Source of the DNA: Flavobacteria bacterium GWA2_35_26
GTDB lineage: Bacteria; Bacteroidota; Bacteroidia; Flavobacteriales; Flavobacteriaceae
Assembly (NCBI GenBank): GCA_001800905.1
Contig: MGWH01000005.1
Location: 56,303-120,302 of the forward strand
Reading direction: 5' to 3'
DNA: 64,000 bases
Shown here: positions 55,725-63,197 of the stretch, in pieces
Layout of the letters: each line of letters begins with the position of its first letter
How positions within the stretch are numbered: position 1 is the stretch's first letter
The notes under the pieces: model-generated
Seen by the model: the letters and a program-made list of their open reading frames with translations, nothing else
The model's database searches: none
Told to the model about the DNA's origin: nothing
Made by a program: the position numbers and the translations under genes

Positions 55725-56690
55725 CTACGATGTGCAATTAATTATTGATAAATATATTGGCATGCCAATGGTTATATTCACTGGAAATGTTATGGCTAAA
55801 GCCATAGGTAAGTAAAGTCCAGGATTTGCTTTTGGAACTGTAATTTTCATTGTAGCTGGAACTGCTATATATGATGCACTTGCGGCTAATACTGAAAAAA
55901 TAAATCGGTTTGAAATATCATCGGTTACAACGGAACTTAATATTGCAAATAAACACCCATTTACAATTGGGATTGCCACTGCAAAAACTAATGGAAACCA
56001 TCCACTGCTAAAGAAGGATTTTAATTTTTTCCCACTCGTGATTCCCATATCTAATAAAAATATTGCAAGAAAGCCTTTGAATAAATCATTTGTGAACGGC
56101 TTTATTCCTTGAGCTTGTTCTGCATTAGCTAGATAGCCAATAACTAAACTTCCAAGGATAAGCAGAACGCTACCATTCGTTAGCGAATGTTTTACAATAG
56201 ATTTTTTTTGGAATTTAGTATTATCTCCTTTGTAAAAAATCGAAATAAGCATTAATCCAATAATTATGGAAGGCGATTCCATTATTGCCATAACTGCAAC
56301 CATATGCCCGTGTAATTGCAACTGATGCGCCTCTAAATAAGATACTGCGGTAACAAATGTAACGGCACTTACAGATCCATATGCTGCTGCAATAGCCCCT
56401 GAATCAAAGAGGTTTAATTTTCTTTTCAGAATAAAAAAGGTATATACTGGAATTATTGCCGAAATACCAATACCAAATAATAAAGACCATATAATTTCAG
56501 TTGAAAAGGTTTCGTGGGATAATTCTTGCCCCCCCTTAAAACCGATGGCAAATAAAAGATATAAGGAGATAAATTTTGAGGAATTTTCAGGAATTTCTAA
56601 ATCACTTTTCAAATACACTGCAATGATTCCAAGTACGAAAAAGAGAAGAGCTGGATTTGTTAAGTTTTCAATGAGCAAGTTTACATTCAT
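55725..56690 (-). CDS. sbtA: SbtA-family sodium-dependent bicarbonate permease
   Basis: LFFVLG...KSDLEIP, LYLLFAIGFKGG, AAAYGSVSAVTF, ESPSII, LLILGSL, FLLDMG, AASASYIAVPA, ITFPVNI.IGMP. Confidence 0.88.
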   Translation of the reverse strand: MNVNLLIENLTNPALLFFVLGIIAVYLKSDLEIPENSSKFISLYLLFAIGFKGGQELSHETFSTEIIWSLLFGIGISAIIPVYTFFILKRKLNLFDSGAIAAAYGSVSAVTFVTAVSYLEAHQLQLHGHMVAVMAIMESPSIIIGLMLISIFYKGDNTKFQKKSIVKHSLTNGSVLLILGSLVIGYLANAEQAQGIKPFTNDLFKGFLAIFLLDMGITSGKKLKSFFSSGWFPLVFAVAIPIVNGCLFAILSSVVTDDISNRFIFSVLAASASYIAVPATMKITVPKANPGLYLPMALAITFPVNITIGMPIYLSIINCTS

Positions 56691-56718: not shown

Positions 56719-58071
56719 TTATCGAATTTTTGAGAATTGTAGTCTCATTCCTTTTGGGGAATAATCAAATACTCCGTTAGTATATACTATATTTCCGTTT
56801 ACAATAGTTGTCATAATTTTACTTTGGAAAACTTGTTCTTCAAAAGGAGACCATTTGCATTTATATAAAATATTTTCTTTTGTCACTTTCCATGATTGGT
56901 TTATATCAACTAATACTAAATCAGCATAATAACCTTCTCTTATATAACCGCGCTCTTTTAGCTTATAAATTTCAGCAACATAATGAGCCGTTTTTTCAAC
57001 AATCATTTCTAATGTCAATTTATTTTGATGATACATTTCTAGCAATGCAGGAAGAGCATGCTGTACTAATGGACCTCCGGACATGGCTTGAAAATAGGTT
57101 CCTGTTTTTTCTTCTATGGTATGGGGAGCATGATCTGTAGCAATTATGTCTAATTTTCCGCTATGTAATGCATCAAATAAACCCTTTTGATTCATTTCTG
57201 ATTTGATTGCAGGATTCCATTTTATTTTGGCTCCTAATTTTTTGTAATCTTGGTCTGAAAACCACAAATGATGAACGCAGGCCTCGGCAGTAATTCGTTT
57301 TTTATGTAAAGGTGTTTTGCAATCAAATAATTCGGTTTCAGCTAGAGTTGAAATATGAAATAAATGCAATCTATTTCCGTATTTTTTTGCAATATCAATT
57401 AATTCTTTCGTGGTGGAGTAACATGCTTCTTCGTTTCGTATTATGGGGTGGTATTCAAAAGGAATATCTGAATTGAATTGAAGTTGTAACGTTTCAGTAT
57501 TCTTCTTGATAATAGCATCGTTTTCGCTATGTAACGCTATTAAAGTATTGGAATTGGCAAATATTTTTTCGATATATTCTGGGTAATTGGCTATAATCCC
57601 ATCCTCTTTAGAAAAATACAATCCGTCATCTGTAACCCCACAAACATTTTCCGTATCTGTTTTTAAAGTTTCCTCCCAATTATCTTTGGTAAGCCCCATA
57701 AAAAAAGAATAATTGGCTAATGATTTTTCATCTGCTAACGAATATTTTTGTTCAAGTAATTCATTAGTAAGTGTATTAGGTAACGTATTTGGCATGTCCA
57801 TAAATGAGGTAATACCTCCAGCAACAGCTGCTATAGATTCGGTGAATAGGTCAGCTTTGTGGGTAAGTCCGGGTTCTCTAAAATGAACTTGATCGTCAAT
57901 AAATCCGGGAAGTAGGTATAAGCCTTCTGCATTAATTTCATTGCAAACAAGTTCTTTGTGTATCGCAATTGAATGATCAATTTTCTCGATTCGATTTTTG
58001 TTAATTAAGACATCTTTGGTAACAATTCTCCCTTCGTTAACAATCTGTGCATTTCGTATTATTAGTCTCAT
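56719..58071 (-). CDS. pyrC: Dihydroorotase (Bacteroidota long-type scaffold) with a TDDG motif at the usual carbamylated-Lys position
   Basis: IDDQVHFREPG, DMPNT, HLFHIST, EACVHHL, IKWNP, IATDHAPH, SGGPLVQH, WSPFE; residues 143-150 read VCGVTDDG. Confidence 0.85.
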   Translation of the reverse strand: MRLIIRNAQIVNEGRIVTKDVLINKNRIEKIDHSIAIHKELVCNEINAEGLYLLPGFIDDQVHFREPGLTHKADLFTESIAAVAGGITSFMDMPNTLPNTLTNELLEQKYSLADEKSLANYSFFMGLTKDNWEETLKTDTENVCGVTDDGLYFSKEDGIIANYPEYIEKIFANSNTLIALHSENDAIIKKNTETLQLQFNSDIPFEYHPIIRNEEACYSTTKELIDIAKKYGNRLHLFHISTLAETELFDCKTPLHKKRITAEACVHHLWFSDQDYKKLGAKIKWNPAIKSEMNQKGLFDALHSGKLDIIATDHAPHTIEEKTGTYFQAMSGGPLVQHALPALLEMYHQNKLTLEMIVEKTAHYVAEIYKLKERGYIREGYYADLVLVDINQSWKVTKENILYKCKWSPFEEQVFQSKIMTTIVNGNIVYTNGVFDYSPKGMRLQFSKIR

Positions 58072-59030
58072 AATTCAGCTACTGCTCTGTTTAATCTATC
58101 GTTTATAGATTTTCCTAGATTAATATTGGGTAATTTTTCAATTAAGAGTACGTCTAGACCTAGAGCATCCAATTCATGTAAATAAGAATATAAATTTTTT
58201 GAAGCTTCCTTAAAATCTCCTGTTGGAGATAAAATGTACTGTACAATTGGCTTAGTTGTATTTACCTTATTTTGAAATTGAAGTACCCCAATTTTTTCAG
58301 ATGAGATAGACTCTAATTCTTTTTCAATATCCTCAACTAGAAAAGATTTTGTTTTTGGAGCATAATGTTTAGTAAACATTCCAGGCGCACTTGGGGCAAT
58401 AGAATCTTTATTGTGGACCTTTATTGGGCCTACAATTTTTTCAATTTCTTCGATCGGAATAGCACCATATCTATAAAGTACAGGTAGTTCTCCTTCAAAT
58501 CCGATAATGGTTGATTCAATTCCATTTTGACAATTTCCTCCATCTAAAACAACGTCTATATCATTCTTAAAATAGTCAAAAACATGTTGCGCATTTGTTG
58601 GGCTAATTGACCCAAAAGGATTGGCGCTTGGTGCAGCTAAGGGGAAGTTTAAATGATGTAATAGCTTCAAAGTCAAAGGATGATTAGGAACTCTAACAGC
58701 AACAGTATTCTTTCCTGAAGTTACCCAATCGGAAATACAATCTTGTTTTTTTAGTACTAAGGTTAATGCACCTGGCCAAAATTGAGCCGCTAATTGAGTT
58801 GCTAAATGAGGTATTTCTTTGGCGACTTCTTTCAGTTGTTCAGTTGACTTAAGATGAACGATTAGCGGATTATTATTGGGTCTTTTTTTTATTTCGAATA
58901 TTTTCTTAACTGCGGATTCGTTATAAATATTGGCAGCCAAGCCATAAACTGTTTCAGTTGGAATTGCAACTACCTTGCCTTCATTTAGGGTATGGATTGC
59001 GAAAGAAATATCTTTAGTTATTACTGTCAT
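58068..59030 (-). CDS. sua5: Sua5-type L-threonylcarbamoyladenylate synthase (YrdC domain + Sua5 domain)
   Basis: PTETVYGL, KKRP..NPLIVH, FWPGALT, AVRVP.HP, LAAPSAN, GIESTII, linker APGM..KHYAP, C-terminal LYSYLHELD...INDRLNRA. Confidence 0.92.
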   Translation of the reverse strand: MTVITKDISFAIHTLNEGKVVAIPTETVYGLAANIYNESAVKKIFEIKKRPNNNPLIVHLKSTEQLKEVAKEIPHLATQLAAQFWPGALTLVLKKQDCISDWVTSGKNTVAVRVPNHPLTLKLLHHLNFPLAAPSANPFGSISPTNAQHVFDYFKNDIDVVLDGGNCQNGIESTIIGFEGELPVLYRYGAIPIEEIEKIVGPIKVHNKDSIAPSAPGMFTKHYAPKTKSFLVEDIEKELESISSEKIGVLQFQNKVNTTKPIVQYILSPTGDFKEASKNLYSYLHELDALGLDVLLIEKLPNINLGKSINDRLNRAVAEL

Positions 59031-59036
59031 AATTAA

Positions 59037-59873
59037 TTAAGGATTACAATAGTCGCAGTACATTGGATCTTCATACTTTTTAGTGTTAGGAAACATTTTA
59101 GTCTCTTGATGTAAACATTTTTTGCATTGATAATTAACGCTTAAAGCTGATTGTGTAGGGGAGTTGCATAAATTACATGGTAATCCTCGAGTCACTTCTT
59201 TAATTTCAAAGCCCGGGGTATCGCATCTGGGACATTTGGTATTCATCTTTTCAACTAATTTATGAGCGGTTTTTTCAATAACTTTCATTCTAGTTGGATT
59301 GAAACAAGCTCTCATATCGGTTTCAACAAATACTTTTCCGAACATTTTTTGGATTTGGTTGAATTGAATAAGTAGTTCTTTTTCATTCGTAATCCCTTTA
59401 TAACATATAGAAAAATTACTGTCATCTGATTTAAGAATTAATCCGTGGGAAGGGAATTGAATATTGGATGAAAATTCTAATAGGTCTTGTTCTGTAGCGA
59501 CATATGTTCCATTAAAATTTGTCGAAGTGCTTAATTCAGTGGCGATTATTTCTAAATTGTTTTTAATATCCAATAGCATTAAATGTTCTTCATCTGCAGG
59601 TAGAAAAAATACGGATGGATGTGCTCCAAAGGATCCCTCACTGGCAATCACTAAATCGCATTTGTAATGGTCTACTGCTGATAAGCATTTTTGGCGAAGC
59701 GTGGAGATTACATCCTTCTTTCTTTCAATTTCTCCGCTAAATGTGCCTAATGTATCGGTATTAAATAGTTGGTTTACTATGCATGTAACACCAAATTCTT
59801 TTTCAAATATTGGAGCTATTATTTTTTCTTTTCCGTGTTGAGTAGCTATCAGTAAATTTCTTCCTTCAAACAT
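59037..59873 (-). CDS. DUF6671-like protein: ITPase-like N-terminus plus four CxxC motifs
   Basis: ATQHGKE, NTDTLGTFSGEIER, IASEGSFGAHP, ETDMRA..NPTRM, then CPRC, CNLC, CKKC, CDYC. Confidence 0.7.
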   Translation of the reverse strand: MFEGRNLLIATQHGKEKIIAPIFEKEFGVTCIVNQLFNTDTLGTFSGEIERKKDVISTLRQKCLSAVDHYKCDLVIASEGSFGAHPSVFFLPADEEHLMLLDIKNNLEIIATELSTSTNFNGTYVATEQDLLEFSSNIQFPSHGLILKSDDSNFSICYKGITNEKELLIQFNQIQKMFGKVFVETDMRACFNPTRMKVIEKTAHKLVEKMNTKCPRCDTPGFEIKEVTRGLPCNLCNSPTQSALSVNYQCKKCLHQETKMFPNTKKYEDPMYCDYCNP

Positions 59874-60438: not shown

Positions 60439-61362
60439 ATGAATTATACATTTCATCAATTAAAAGTTTTTTTGAAAGTTTCTCAAACAAAAAGTATTAC
60501 TAAGGCTGCTAATGAGCTACATCTTACACAGCCAGCAGTATCAATACAATTAAAAAATTTTCAAGATCAATTTGAAATCCCACTTACAGAAGTAATAGGG
60601 AGGCAATTGTATGTTACTGATTTCGGAAAAGAAATTGCATCAACTGCCGAACAAATTTTAAGTGAAGTTGAAAAAATCAATTTTAAAACACTTGCCTACA
60701 AAGGAATATTATCAGGGGTGTTAAAAGTATCTGTTGTATCGACAGGGAAATATGTGATGCCTTATTTTTTGAGTGATTTTCTAAATTCAAACAATGGTAT
60801 TGAGCTTGATATGGATGTTACCAATAAATCAAAAGTGATTAAAGCTTTAAGAAATAATGAAGTTGATTTTGCATTAGTTTCTAATCTTCCTGGAGAAATC
60901 AATGTTGAATCTGAAACATTAATGCAAAATAAATTGTTTTTGGTAAGTAATAAACAGTATTTGAATGATTCAAAATTATCAAGTAATGATGCTTTAATTG
61001 ATGTTCCTTTGATTTATAGAGAAGAAGGTTCTGCTACAAGATTACATATGGAAAATTATTTTTCAAAAAAAGGATATATCATTAAAAGCAAACTGCAATT
61101 AACTTCTAATGAAGCAGTTAAACAGGCAGTAATATCAGGAATTGGTCTATCAATCATGCCGTTAATTGGTTTGAAAAACGAATTGGAAAAGGGGGATTTA
61201 AAGATTATTCCTGCCAAAGGATTACCCATTGTGACCAATTGGAAATTAGTGTGGTTAAAAGGCAAGAAAATGAGTCCGGTAGCAGCAGCTTATTTAGAGT
61301 ATATCAGACAACAAAAAACTGTAATTAATGAAAATCAATTTTCATGGATTAATAATTATTAA
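60439..61362 (+). CDS. LysR-family regulator, CbbR/CmpR-like
   Basis: YTFHQLKVF, SITKAANELHLTQPAVSIQLK, STGKYVMP, REEGSATR, SNEAVKQAV.SGIG motifs typical of the CbbR-like effector domain. Confidence 0.8.
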   Translation: MNYTFHQLKVFLKVSQTKSITKAANELHLTQPAVSIQLKNFQDQFEIPLTEVIGRQLYVTDFGKEIASTAEQILSEVEKINFKTLAYKGILSGVLKVSVVSTGKYVMPYFLSDFLNSNNGIELDMDVTNKSKVIKALRNNEVDFALVSNLPGEINVESETLMQNKLFLVSNKQYLNDSKLSSNDALIDVPLIYREEGSATRLHMENYFSKKGYIIKSKLQLTSNEAVKQAVISGIGLSIMPLIGLKNELEKGDLKIIPAKGLPIVTNWKLVWLKGKKMSPVAAAYLEYIRQQKTVINENQFSWINNY

Positions 61363-62555
61363 TCATTTAGATTCTCATTAAATGCTGATGGAAGTAGGGT
61401 AGGAATAAACTTGATCAATATGGGTAACAACAAACTTCCTCCAGGCAATAAAAATATGGTTAATGATGGGATAGTTTTACAAATATCAAGTAATTGTTTT
61501 TTTATTTTTTTCTTTTCTTTTTCATCCAAATCCCTGCTTGTTGAATGAGCTAACAATACCATAAGTTCTTTACTTTGAACAATTTCCTTCACTAGGCGTG
61601 TTTTGTTACGTGCAATAAGAGTGACAACACTTTGCGTAGTTTGATCGTAAAAATGTTTAACAGGATTGGAATAATTAAAATAAGGAATTTCCTTTTTATG
61701 TTTGGAAATAAAGAGATTCGTATCGTTGATACTTTGTTTTACAAACTCGTCAGATACAGCAAGAGCTTCGGCCAATTGAAATAAAAAATAGGATTCATTC
61801 GTTTCTAAAACTCCATCGTTCCATAGCGCCATACCAGCAATGTCAATTAGGTAATTCTTTTCTAATTCATTGGTAAAAAAATCCAATTCCAGTGTTTCTA
61901 AACTCAAATTAGAGTTTTTGGAGAATTTACTATAACGTATAGATGCCTCAAAAAGTTTGATTAATAAGTCGTCGTATTGCGATTTATTGGTTTTGATTTT
62001 CAAAGCCAGAGTGACAATATTGACAATCGTTTCTTCTATTTTTTTGAGATATTTTTCCGGGATATTTCCATGCATTAAATATTGGCGAAAGGCCAATACA
62101 TCAATATACAAAAGCGCATTGGTAACTAAATGAGAAAAGTTTTTACTGATGATGTTTTCATTAGTTTGAACTCGTTCGTCAATGAATTTTTCAAGTGTAA
62201 GTGAAGGACTATTCTTTGGGAGTAATTTTTTAAACAAGTTAAATTCTTCTGGATGCATCTCATTATAAAAAGACACCGTTTCGGCAATGAATTCCTCCCA
62301 ATTAAGTTTTTCCTTAGTAACACTATAAACTCCTAAAAGGCTATTCAATAAAGCTACTTTTGACACTTCTTCTTTGAACCAACCAGTAATAGGAATTACC
62401 GATTTTGTATCCAACGAAATGATGTGCCCATAGATAAATCCTGATTTTCTTAATGCTTTATAGAAAGCATCATTTTCAGTGACCAATTCCATCTTTGAAA
62501 TCTGTTGTTCACTGAAAAATTTATCGATCCAACCGGGTACTGAAGGGTTTATCAT
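61359..62555 (-). CDS. LETM1-related protein
   Basis: C-terminal EKKKIKKQLLDICKTIPSLTIFLLPGGSLLLPILIK resembles the LETM1 TM/ribosome-binding segment. Confidence 0.7.
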   Translation of the reverse strand: MINPSVPGWIDKFFSEQQISKMELVTENDAFYKALRKSGFIYGHIISLDTKSVIPITGWFKEEVSKVALLNSLLGVYSVTKEKLNWEEFIAETVSFYNEMHPEEFNLFKKLLPKNSPSLTLEKFIDERVQTNENIISKNFSHLVTNALLYIDVLAFRQYLMHGNIPEKYLKKIEETIVNIVTLALKIKTNKSQYDDLLIKLFEASIRYSKFSKNSNLSLETLELDFFTNELEKNYLIDIAGMALWNDGVLETNESYFLFQLAEALAVSDEFVKQSINDTNLFISKHKKEIPYFNYSNPVKHFYDQTTQSVVTLIARNKTRLVKEIVQSKELMVLLAHSTSRDLDEKEKKKIKKQLLDICKTIPSLTIFLLPGGSLLLPILIKFIPTLLPSAFNENLND

Positions 62556-62672
62556 TAACTTGAATTAAAAGTACAAAGCTAGGTTTTTTTCTGGTTTCAA
62601 AGATGAAATTAAAATTAAAAAACAGTTTTGTAAATGAATACAAAACGGTTTGAATTGCCAAGTAAATAATTG

Positions 62673-63197
62673 TTACTTTATGATTGCTGAGCAGGCTACT
62701 CGAGCTCCAGAATTTCCAGTGGGCTGCGTTACGAAATCATCAGCACCTTGATGCACTATCAATCCTTTTCCTAAAACATCTTTAGCAGGATCTCCACAAC
62801 CTATACACCATTCCTCAGTAGTCAAAGTGATTGTTCCATTTCCATTTTCATCAGCTGTGAAGTTTCCAATATCGCCTTTATGGTATTCTCCTTCTCCCCA
62901 TTTACCGTGTTTTTTAAAGGTAGGATTCCAATGTCCGCCTGCTGAACTTCCATCAGCGGCAGAACAATCTGATTTTTCGTGAATATGAATGGCATGAACA
63001 CCCGGTTTTAGCCCAGTAAGTTTAGCTTCAAAAGTGACTTTTCCTTTTTTCTCTGTAAAGGTTGCAGTTCCTGCAACTGAACTATTACTCTTCGGTTCAA
63101 AATACAGAGCTAGTTTTTTTACATCATTTGAATTGGCAGTTTTACAGCCAATAATAACAGCTACAATAACAAGAATGGATACTACTATTTTTTTCAT
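62673..63197 (-). CDS. sodC: Cu/Zn superoxide dismutase, lipoprotein
   Basis: Lipobox IIGC; HAIHIH, GGHWNP, HGKWG, HKGDIGN, IVHQ..DD, SGARVAC (all metal ligands and the catalytic Arg present). Confidence 0.93.
   Translation of the reverse strand: MKKIVVSILVIVAVIIGCKTANSNDVKKLALYFEPKSNSSVAGTATFTEKKGKVTFEAKLTGLKPGVHAIHIHEKSDCSAADGSSAGGHWNPTFKKHGKWGEGEYHKGDIGNFTADENGNGTITLTTEEWCIGCGDPAKDVLGKGLIVHQGADDFVTQPTGNSGARVACSAIIK

Follow-up and report, generated by a model that had tools for sequence, protein, structure and literature searches.

What does the DUF6671 protein do that is encoded on the minus strand of a 64,000-nucleotide stretch of the genome of Flavobacteria bacterium GWA2_35_26 (contig MGWH01000005.1, positions 56,303 to 120,302), in an operon with a Sua5-type synthase and a bicarbonate transporter homologue? 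We refer to this whole stretch as the window, and coordinates without a contig or locus label are window coordinates. We find a soluble two-domain protein, in which an N-terminal domain resembling inosine triphosphatases (ITPases; residues 1-210) is followed by tandem Cys4 ribbons (residues 212-278). Gene context shows it to be a near-constant soluble member of LysR-controlled gene sets that combine carbon uptake with spare CO2-dependent enzymes, and by this linkage places it in the low-CO2 response. Our best reading, to which we give a little less than an even chance, is that of a putative Mg-dependent nucleotide/phosphoanhydride hydrolase or nucleotide binder serving this response.

The Pfam model PF20376 (DUF6671) matches residues 62-278 over all of its positions (1-217 of 217; E = 4.8e-89, 298.3 bits against a cut-off of 23.8), and 40 of 40 diverse relatives match it too. 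At 90% identity the family falls into 2,419 clusters, at 50% it has 1,698 representatives, and the source genome has a single copy of the gene. Nearly all listed members are 256-306 amino acids long (extremes 214-336), with identities of 56-60% between Bacteroidota orders and 30-36% to Proteobacteria and Actinobacteria. An NCBIfam scan assigned no model to the protein, sequence searches of the PDB with the single protein and two profiles returned no enzyme relative but only Cys-rich noise, and neither DUF6671 nor PF20376 is mentioned in the literature searched. The Pfam model starts at residue 62 and thus leaves out a strand-loop-helix segment that holds the invariant residues T11, H13, K15, D40, G43-F45 and R51; the true domain start is residue 1, not 62.

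We defined invariant positions in an alignment of 15 sequences from Bacteroidota, Proteobacteria and Actinobacteria, which share 29-55% identity. They comprise T11, H13, K15, T39, D40, G43, T44, F45, R51 and K62 in the N-terminal third, E79, P86, E96, D102 and K159 in the middle, D186, R188, A189, N192, P193, R195 and L231 further on, and, in the tail, all eight cysteines together with the C-terminal N277-P278. The window protein carries every invariant column of both family alignments. The strings quoted in the original prediction, which was made from the DNA letters and their translation, are all present: LLIATQHGKEKII (residues 7-19), LVIASEGSFG (residues 74-83), ETDMRACFNPTRMKVIEKTAHKL (residues 184-206) and the four knuckles CPRC, CNLC, CKKC and CDYC. 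Judged from this alignment the motifs are not chance, because their positions stay invariant across phyla at such low overall identity. H85 and H143 are invariant inside Bacteroidota only; we had considered a carbonic anhydrase-like His3 zinc site formed by H13, H85 and H143, and dropped it because the latter two are not conserved in Proteobacteria and Actinobacteria.

We modelled the structure twice with AlphaFold2. The first model covers the whole protein and is based on a 27-sequence alignment (predicted local distance difference test score, pLDDT, 87.1; predicted template modelling score, pTM, 0.79), and a second, independent one covers residues 1-210, using 36 sequences from fetched loci (pLDDT 93.6, pTM 0.88). 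Their secondary structures agree. The lowest confidence in the full-length model (pLDDT 59) falls on residues 41-50 in the loop TDTLGTFSGEIER, as would be expected of a substrate lid. In Foldseek searches of the PDB with either model, the ITPase-like superfamily makes up the bulk of the top matches, with more than 14 members at probabilities of 0.9-1.0 and E-values of 3e-4 to 5e-2. Human ITPA (2j4e) is found with E = 3.4e-4 to 1e-3 and probability 1.0, and the best geometric match is YjjX (1u14/1u5w), with template modelling (TM) scores of 0.45-0.57 of the target and probability 1.0. Further matches include PH1917 from P. horikoshii, TM0159 from T. maritima, the Ham1-like domain of KomC, Plasmodium Ham1, Mj0226 and several Maf proteins. 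The lipoproteins GNA1162, PelC and CT253 reach similar E-values, with root mean square deviations (rmsd) of 6-12 Å and TM-scores of 0.2-0.4, and we set them aside as generic alpha/beta similarity; matches to CinA-C/PncC and ATP-grasp proteins were rejected for their lower probability and poor geometry.

A profile comparison likewise points, if weakly, to YjjX (PF01931), the inosine/xanthosine triphosphatase of E. coli. The search for E. coli YjjX homologues gave near-identical enterobacterial sequences only, and we therefore assembled the YjjX profile from two sources, six genomes of the phylum Bacteroidota and five enterobacterial sequences; Ham1 and Maf profiles were built from related genomes. 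The 40-member DUF6671 profile aligns with YjjX in hhalign over 66 colinear columns (score 25.1, P = 0.006, probability 6%), a score that 0 of 30 column-shuffled YjjX controls reach (maximum 21.5). For comparison, the accepted relatives Ham1 and Maf align with P = 0.13 when equally shallow profiles are used, worse than DUF6671 with YjjX. Of the families compared, YjjX alone gives a profile alignment that exceeds its controls. The alignment pairs LLIATQHGKEKII with the (S/T)xNxxK phosphate-binding loop of YjjX, placing K15 on the NxxK lysine (K13 in YjjX), and further pairs G47/R51 with 'GAxxR' and E79-G80 with I-E-(A/G)-G. By this pairing K15 would correspond to the superfamily's phosphate-binding Lys behind strand beta1, and E79 to its acidic metal ligand in the central strand. 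Three motif echoes of Ham1-type pyrophosphatases had been proposed for this protein: the first two, carried by K15 and by E79-G80, are indeed in register with YjjX, and the third, to SHRxxAxxKL, found no confident alignment. The DUF6671 catalytic domain differs from YjjX in being about 40 residues longer and in having H13 where YjjX has N/P; it also carries an additional 67-residue double zinc ribbon, and its gene lies in a setting of inorganic-carbon uptake, not of nucleotide sanitation.

The remaining members of the superfamily are further away. With Ham1/RdgB/ITPA proteins (PF01725; 2j4e, 1vp2, 2e5x, 1b78) DUF6671 has the alpha/beta architecture in common, and read from the sequences, the order and spacing of K15-E48-K62-E79 resemble K13-E41-K53-D69 of the genome's own Ham1; E48 is acidic but not invariant, being Glu or Asp across phyla. 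The DDSG, FGYDP and SHR motifs, which are present in that true Ham1, are absent from the protein and from the family consensus. Maf proteins (PF02545; 1ex2, 2amh, 4jhc) give superfamily-level fold matches with probabilities of 0.5-0.9 but weaker geometry (rmsd 7-16 Å), and hhalign against the Maf profile was null (probability 0.6%), its aligned stretch lying inside the zinc-ribbon region. A six-frame search of the genome with PF01931 at E <= 0.01 found nothing. The Ham1-like sensor domain of KomC from the Kongming defence system (9v0g, 8zsg, 9xvc; Foldseek probability 1.0) shows that an ITPase-like fold can be a nucleotide sensor within a larger machine; DUF6671 has no sequence similarity to it and no defence context, and it retains many invariant acidic residues.

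The C-terminal domain contains four CxxC knuckles, and every aligned member terminates in CxxCNP. In the AlphaFold2 model the knuckles are separated by predicted beta-hairpins, and spacing and strands fit a Cys4 zinc ribbon. The original prediction had allowed for two zinc or Fe-S centres; zinc ribbons would be the better fit, because there are weak zinc-ribbon Pfam matches (zf_Rg in 14 of the 40 members, also Zn_ribbon_8 and DZR) besides the modelled hairpins, and rubredoxin-type iron is a further candidate. A possible relative is the zinc-finger domain of HypF (PF07503), in which a CxxC...CxxC ribbon likewise occurs twice in tandem, the knuckles are again of the CPxC and CxxC(G/N)P types, and a YrdC/Sua5-type neighbour is present. 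In hhalign, residues 212-278 align to region 107-186 of the single E. coli HypF sequence with all eight cysteines and the knuckles in register (P ~5e-4 to 7e-4). However, the spacers are 15/13/19 residues in DUF6671 against 18/24/18 in HypF, and a six-frame search of the genome with PF07503 (zf-HYPF) at E <= 10 did not match the gene. As Cys-rich alignments are unreliable, this similarity may be that of generic zinc ribbons, and we keep the homology as a lead only.

We compared the gene neighbourhoods of DUF6671 in 80 Bacteroidota genome loci, in which genes were called, clustered and labelled with Pfam; DUF6671 was called in 76 of these, and the neighbour counts that follow refer to genes within six of DUF6671 in these 76 loci. 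At least one carbon-uptake gene or CO2-linked enzyme is present in 62 loci, and SbtA, carbonic anhydrase or SulP in 35. The most frequent neighbours are a divergent LysR regulator (41 loci), a small p92 or p80 protein (38, directly upstream in 36 and often overlapping DUF6671), Sua5 (34, directly downstream in 32), dihydroorotase (34) and SbtA (33), followed by an NAD-type isocitrate dehydrogenase (PF00180 plus PF18324; 19), beta-carbonic anhydrase (15), SulP (6) and a CutA1-like protein (4). Two layouts dominate. In one, the genes run in the order (isocitrate dehydrogenase)-(p80)-p92-DUF6671-Sua5-(dihydroorotase)-SbtA-(carbonic anhydrase-SulP) next to the LysR gene; in the other, found in 18 loci, dihydroorotase and DUF6671 form a two-gene operon that lacks a transporter in its vicinity, and -46 to +23 bp separate the two genes, apart from L031, where the called gap is 381 bp. 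In the window, the adjacency to Sua5 on which the original prediction drew is borne out by a gap of 6 bp. Among 101 genomes sampled from the phylum, DUF6671 occurs in 4, all 4 with SbtA, against an SbtA background of 29 of 101; within the genus, three genomes have both and three have neither.

In 35 of 35 assessable dihydroorotases of Bacteroidota DUF6671 gene strings (loci L001-L080) the GIK motif, whose lysine is the carbamylated one, is replaced by (T/S)DDGLYF. Two subtypes can be told apart, TDDG...NNDEG in SbtA operons and SDDG...TKKGN in the two-gene operons, and in locus L043 a housekeeping GIK copy lies directly upstream of an SDDG copy, with the SDDG type adjoining DUF6671. Small membrane proteins of two clusters (f77, f91), which match neither Pfam nor NCBIfam, recur before p92. 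The CO2-releasing isocitrate dehydrogenase is the first gene after the divergent LysR gene in the 19 loci that have it, and a LETM1-like gene such as that beside the window's LysR gene accompanies LysR in nine Flavobacterium-type loci. The CutA1-like protein (PF03091, 103 amino acids) lies between p92 or isocitrate dehydrogenase and DUF6671. CutA1-like proteins have a PII-like fold, and this one may have a role like that of SbtB.

Outside Bacteroidota, a tblastn search of plasmids yielded 12 full-length relatives at 30-36% identity, and we inspected 11 of their loci, from Pseudomonas, Ideonella, Mesorhizobium, Aminobacter, Methylocystis, Fuscovulum, Arthrobacter, Nocardia and Mycolicibacterium. 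In every one of these 11 proteobacterial and actinobacterial loci, DUF6671 is linked to a gene for carbon uptake or for a CO2-linked enzyme (DabBA in 7, SbtA in 2, pyrC in 2), so that DabBA or SbtA is found in 9 of the 11. The arrangements are DabB-DabA-DUF6671 beside LysR, with 4-bp overlaps of DabA and DUF6671, in Ideonella, Aminobacter and Fuscovulum (the last with ilvD in addition); DabB-DabA-CysD-DUF6671 on two Mesorhizobium plasmids; DabBA divergent from a helix-turn-helix (HTH) gene, Sua5, a winged HTH gene and DUF6671 in Nocardia; DabBA-(regulator)-carbonic anhydrase divergent from DUF6671-CBS-TerC in Mycolicibacterium; SbtA divergent from DUF6671, with or without ilvD, in Arthrobacter; RaiA-x-TerC-DUF6671-pyrC beside NhaR in Pseudomonas; and ilvD-pyrC-DUF6671-acyl-CoA carboxylase beta in Methylocystis. 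The pyrC genes of these plasmid loci are genuine type II and retain the lysine.

We further examined 80 metagenome loci chosen around the proteobacterial type. A carbon-uptake or CO2-linked neighbour lies within 6 kb in 26 of the 33 that extend 2 kb or more to either side, as counted from the gene table; across all 80, a carbon-uptake gene is present in 32 and a LysR relative lies beside DUF6671 in 29. SbtA-DUF6671 beside LysR is seen in about 20 loci and DabBA-DUF6671 in at least nine. Other arrangements are RaiA-TerC-DUF6671-pyrC-ilvD-Sua5, SulP-carbonic anhydrase-DUF6671-CysD-BioD, phosphoenolpyruvate (PEP) carboxylase-DUF6671-CysD-CysN, SulP-lipoprotein-DUF6671-FwdA-like-CysD and isocitrate dehydrogenase-DUF6671, the last two genes adjoining in L170 and L200. 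The original prediction had named missing co-occurrence with inorganic-carbon genes in other genomes as evidence against itself; we found this co-occurrence in the Bacteroidota, the plasmid and the metagenome sets alike.

Several neighbours recur across these non-Bacteroidota loci. CysD, the small subunit of sulfate adenylyltransferase, scores at or near its equivalog cut-off; besides its place between DabA and DUF6671 in Mesorhizobium, six metagenome loci have it downstream of DUF6671, at distances from a few hundred bp to a few kb, and in some of these CysN or BioD comes next. In Proteobacteria and Actinobacteria, DUF6671 also has extra ilvD copies beside it or close by. As IlvD/EDD enzymes have a conserved carbamylated lysine (PMC5770437), these copies, like those of pyrC, may be CO2-dependent spares. 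BioD, PEP carboxylase and an FwdA-like amidohydrolase widen this set of CO2- or bicarbonate-dependent 'spare parts'. TerC-family membrane proteins also recur, together with RaiA, CBS-domain and universal stress proteins and an NhaR-type LysR regulator, a hint that the regulon responds to alkaline or stationary-phase stress as well.

Table 1. Features of the DUF6671 gene and its surroundings. Coordinates are those of the window unless prefixed with a contig (C) or locus (L) label.
Feature	Coordinates or loci	Strand	Remarks
DUF6671 gene	59037-59873	-	ATG start, 278 amino acids plus stop codon in the open reading frame list; PF20376 match
N-terminal alpha/beta domain, residues 1-210, distantly ITPase-like	59244-59873	-	AlphaFold2 models, Foldseek, hhalign against YjjX
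Residues 1-61, outside the PF20376 model	59691-59873	-	
Strand beta1 and loop LLIATQHGKEKII, residues 7-19	59817-59855	-	invariant T11, H13, K15
Loop TDTLGTFSGEIER, residues 39-51	59721-59759	-	invariant T39, D40, G43, T44, F45, R51
ASEGSFG, residues 77-83	59625-59645	-	E79 invariant across phyla; pairs with Glu of YjjX I-E-(A/G)-G
ETDMRACFNPTR, residues 184-195	59289-59324	-	invariant D186, R188, A189, N192, P193, R195
Double Cys4 ribbon, residues 212-278	59040-59240	-	eight invariant Cys and N277-P278
CxxC knuckles	59223-59234, 59166-59177, 59115-59126, 59046-59057	-	CPRC 214-217, CNLC 233-236, CKKC 250-253, CDYC 273-276
p92, soluble open reading frame of 92 amino acids	59873-60151	-	no Pfam or NCBIfam match; stop codon overlaps DUF6671 start by 1 bp
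Two-transmembrane open reading frame of 68 amino acids	60154-60360	-	heads the operon together with p92; no Pfam or NCBIfam match
Sua5-type threonylcarbamoyl-AMP synthase	58068-59030	-	downstream of DUF6671
Dihydroorotase paralogue	56719-58071	-	TDDG replaces the carbamylated-lysine motif
SbtA-family bicarbonate transporter homologue	55725-56690	-	PF05982, E = 7.5e-114; last gene of the string
Divergent LysR-type regulator	60439-61362	+	
LETM1-RBD-like protein of 398 amino acids and periplasmic Cu/Zn superoxide dismutase-like lipoprotein	61359-63197	-	beside the LysR gene
Canonical Ham1 of the genome	C2:188376-188927		
Maf of the genome	C6:120615-121160		
Housekeeping dihydroorotase of the genome	C2:661812-663143		GIK motif; separate contig
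Isocitrate dehydrogenase, first gene after LysR	L006, L008, L011, L014, L116-L118, others		Bacteroidota
CutA1-like protein	L013, L018, L027, L033		Bacteroidota
CysD between DabA and DUF6671	L125:6075-6980, L128:5036-5932		Mesorhizobium plasmids
CysD downstream of DUF6671	L178, L181, L182, L183, L187, L225		
Extra ilvD	L122, L123, L131, L156, L159, L161, L165, L171, L176		
BioD (TIGR00347), PEP carboxylase (PF00311), FwdA-like amidohydrolase (TIGR03121)	L182:9898-10641, L178:8-1138, L183:53-2149, L225:8964-10625		
TerC-family membrane protein	L121, L122, L130, L161		

Taken together, the uptake systems in DUF6671 sets are SbtA, DabB-DabA and SulP plus beta-carbonic anhydrase, and the spare enzymes are Sua5, dihydroorotase, IlvD, BioD, PEP carboxylase, acyl-CoA carboxylase and the FwdA-like amidohydrolase. 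BioD uses CO2, PEP carboxylase and acyl-CoA carboxylases use bicarbonate, Sua5 uses bicarbonate/CO2, and dihydroorotase and FwdA-type amidohydrolases use a carbamylated lysine. Since these neighbours consume or need CO2 or bicarbonate, their common denominator is inorganic-carbon supply and the dependence on it.

How might the protein act in such a setting? The N-terminal domain contains six invariant cationic residues (K15, R51, K62, K159, R188, R195) and five invariant acidic ones (D40, E79, E96, D102, D186), which we infer to be gathered in a putative cleft. This cleft would bind a nucleotide-type phosphoanhydride together with Mg2+/Mn2+, which would then be hydrolyzed or sensed, and the ribbons may supply stability, oligomerisation or docking. 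The putative ligand would be a nucleotide metabolite or signal tied to carbon supply, for example an AMP mixed anhydride or an adenine-nucleotide signal, either of which we would favour over ITP or XTP. We favour a soluble enzyme acting on one carbon-linked small molecule over a subunit that docks on many partners, because the length and the residue set of DUF6671 stay constant while its neighbours change (DabA, SbtA, dihydroorotase, Sua5, PEP carboxylase). In a more far-reaching proposal, which we think unlikely, DUF6671 would be an unrecognised and widespread enzyme of inorganic-carbon homeostasis, coupling nucleotide-dependent chemistry to the use of CO2/bicarbonate, and would be required by heterotrophs with SbtA, DAB or SulP/carbonic anhydrase at air-level or lower CO2. 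The substrate of such an enzyme might, for instance, be an activated one-carbon species linked to AMP or phosphate, or else a nucleotide that signals the state of the carbon supply.

Several observations weigh against a nucleotide hydrolase or binder of the low-CO2 response. As to the fold, TM-scores to ITPase-like structures are 0.33-0.57 and only about 140 of the 210 residues superpose at 4-5 Å, also with the Ham1/RdgB/ITPA structures. The single best E-value in both Foldseek searches belongs to GNA1162, an unrelated lipoprotein that superposes with an rmsd of 11.5-11.6 Å. The hidden Markov models (HMMs) of Ham1, Maf and YjjX (PF01725, PF02545, PF01931) match 0 of the 40 family members even at E <= 10, and hhalign probabilities are low, 6% against YjjX and 0.6% against Ham1, the latter a null result over 27 columns. 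The low TM-scores and the partial superposition make the protein a distant relative and not a member of Ham1/RdgB/YjjX. The ITPase/Ham1 fold of the original prediction is partly supported: the Foldseek matches of both models speak for it, and the TM-scores, the blank family HMMs and the blank Ham1 alignment weaken it. We conclude from sequence and models that the domain probably represents a distant new branch of the ITPase-like superfamily, closest to YjjX and outside the Ham1, Maf and YjjX families. As to the context, 14 of the 76 Bacteroidota loci (~18%) have no carbon-related neighbour, and inspection of their neighbours by eye revealed no recurring theme. CysD, for which we know of no link to CO2, is the one recurrent neighbour that carbon supply does not explain. 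Finally, gene context is guilt by association, which fits a regulator, a maturation factor and an enzyme equally well.

The regulator is a serious rival, if an unlikely one. In low-CO2 regulons the gene of the bicarbonate transporter SbtA is accompanied by that of SbtB, a small, soluble, PII-like partner that binds nucleotides, and DUF6671 could by functional analogy be a nucleotide-gated accessory subunit, its N-terminal domain sensing an adenine nucleotide or second messenger and its ribbons docking on DabA, SbtA or client enzymes to tune their activity. The overlaps of its start with the DabA stop on the Ideonella, Aminobacter and Fuscovulum plasmids and its position right after SbtA in metagenome loci would suit such a subunit; Ham1-like domains can moreover be pure sensors, as in KomC (9v0g/9xvc), and zinc ribbons often mediate protein contacts. 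Yet DabA, SbtA and dihydroorotase are structurally unrelated as docking partners, the 18 Bacteroidota dihydroorotase-DUF6671 operons have no transporter nearby, and the five invariant acidic residues suggest catalysis more than mere ligand binding. In Actinobacteria the gene forms a separate divergent unit alongside a PII-like gene; the folds of SbtB and DUF6671 are unrelated, and as PII-like genes coexist with DUF6671 in several loci, it is not simply a replacement for SbtB. We consider it improbable that the protein is a maturation factor dependent on nucleoside triphosphates (NTPs), one that loads Zn or builds the carbamylated-lysine centre of dihydroorotase, IlvD and FwdA-type enzymes when CO2 is scarce. 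Such enzymes are very often its immediate neighbours: lysine-bearing type II pyrC adjoins it in Pseudomonas and Methylocystis, four plasmids and six metagenome loci have ilvD, whose family conserves the carbamylated lysine, adjacent to it or a few genes away, and the FwdA-like gene follows it in L225. Eight cysteines and an NTPase-like domain also loosely recall the logic of HypA/HypB or UreG. But the loss of the lysine in all 35 assessable Bacteroidota partner dihydroorotases rules out a lysine-carbamylation 'activase' for dihydroorotase as the common function; in addition, labile metal-transfer sites do not typically take the form of Cys4 ribbons, which are structural, no known G3E metallochaperone is related in fold, and some loci contain a pump without any such client.

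Quite improbable, too, is adenylate proofreading or salvage for Sua5, in which DUF6671 would hydrolyze or sense threonylcarbamoyl-AMP (TC-AMP) or a related AMP mixed anhydride. This would account for Sua5 as the next gene in 32 Bacteroidota loci and its presence near DUF6671 in Nocardia and eight metagenome loci, and perhaps for CysD, the maker of the AMP mixed anhydride adenosine phosphosulfate, on the two Mesorhizobium plasmids and in six metagenome loci; cleavage of AMP-X would be chemically analogous to the attack of ITPase-fold enzymes on the alpha-phosphate. However, TC-AMP is short-lived anyway, and many loci have no Sua5 nearby, namely most of those outside Bacteroidota and the 18 Bacteroidota dihydroorotase-DUF6671 pairs, which makes a Sua5-specific hydrolase less likely. 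The same absence speaks against a split analogue of the HypF N-terminal module, which would hydrolyze carbamoyl phosphate or another activated one-carbon donor and pass carbamate or CO2 to Sua5 or other clients. There the in-register alignment of the ribbon with the HypF fingers is joined by a parallel in gene order, since these fingers directly precede a YrdC/Sua5-like domain, but the zf-HYPF HMM is blank, Cys-rich alignments inflate scores and the N-terminal domain is not acylphosphatase-like, and we regard this proposal as very improbable. Equally poor are the prospects of an ordinary house-cleaning ITP/XTP or pyrimidine NTP pyrophosphatase that sits in these operons by chance. The fold does resemble ITPA, YjjX and Maf, but DUF6671 is not the housekeeping sanitising ITPase, because the genome holds a Ham1 and a Maf of its own; all three family HMMs fail, an invariant zinc-ribbon domain has been added, and the distribution, patchy within the phylum sample and tracking carbon-uptake genes across phyla, is unlike that of a general sanitiser. 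We thus return to the putative hydrolase or binder of a carbon-linked nucleotide as the reading we would put first.

Apart from carbonic anhydrase and the recently described DAB pumps, little is understood, to our knowledge, of the ways in which non-photosynthetic bacteria perceive a lack of CO2 and live through it. Three unrelated carbon-uptake systems and a changing cast of CO2-dependent enzymes are found together with DUF6671, which is a marker for a 'low-CO2 regulon' in heterotrophs. The fold class is already known; what is new is the placement of DUF6671 in it, the fusion to zinc ribbons and the association with low CO2, and there is a real chance that the function is new as well. The ITPase-like superfamily would then gain a new functional branch with a zinc-ribbon tail. 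As it sits beside CO2/bicarbonate uptake genes and spare CO2-dependent enzymes in at least three phyla, DUF6671 is a good candidate for an unrecognised player in the response of ordinary bacteria to CO2 shortage, and it could reveal a missing function in carbon-concentrating physiology.

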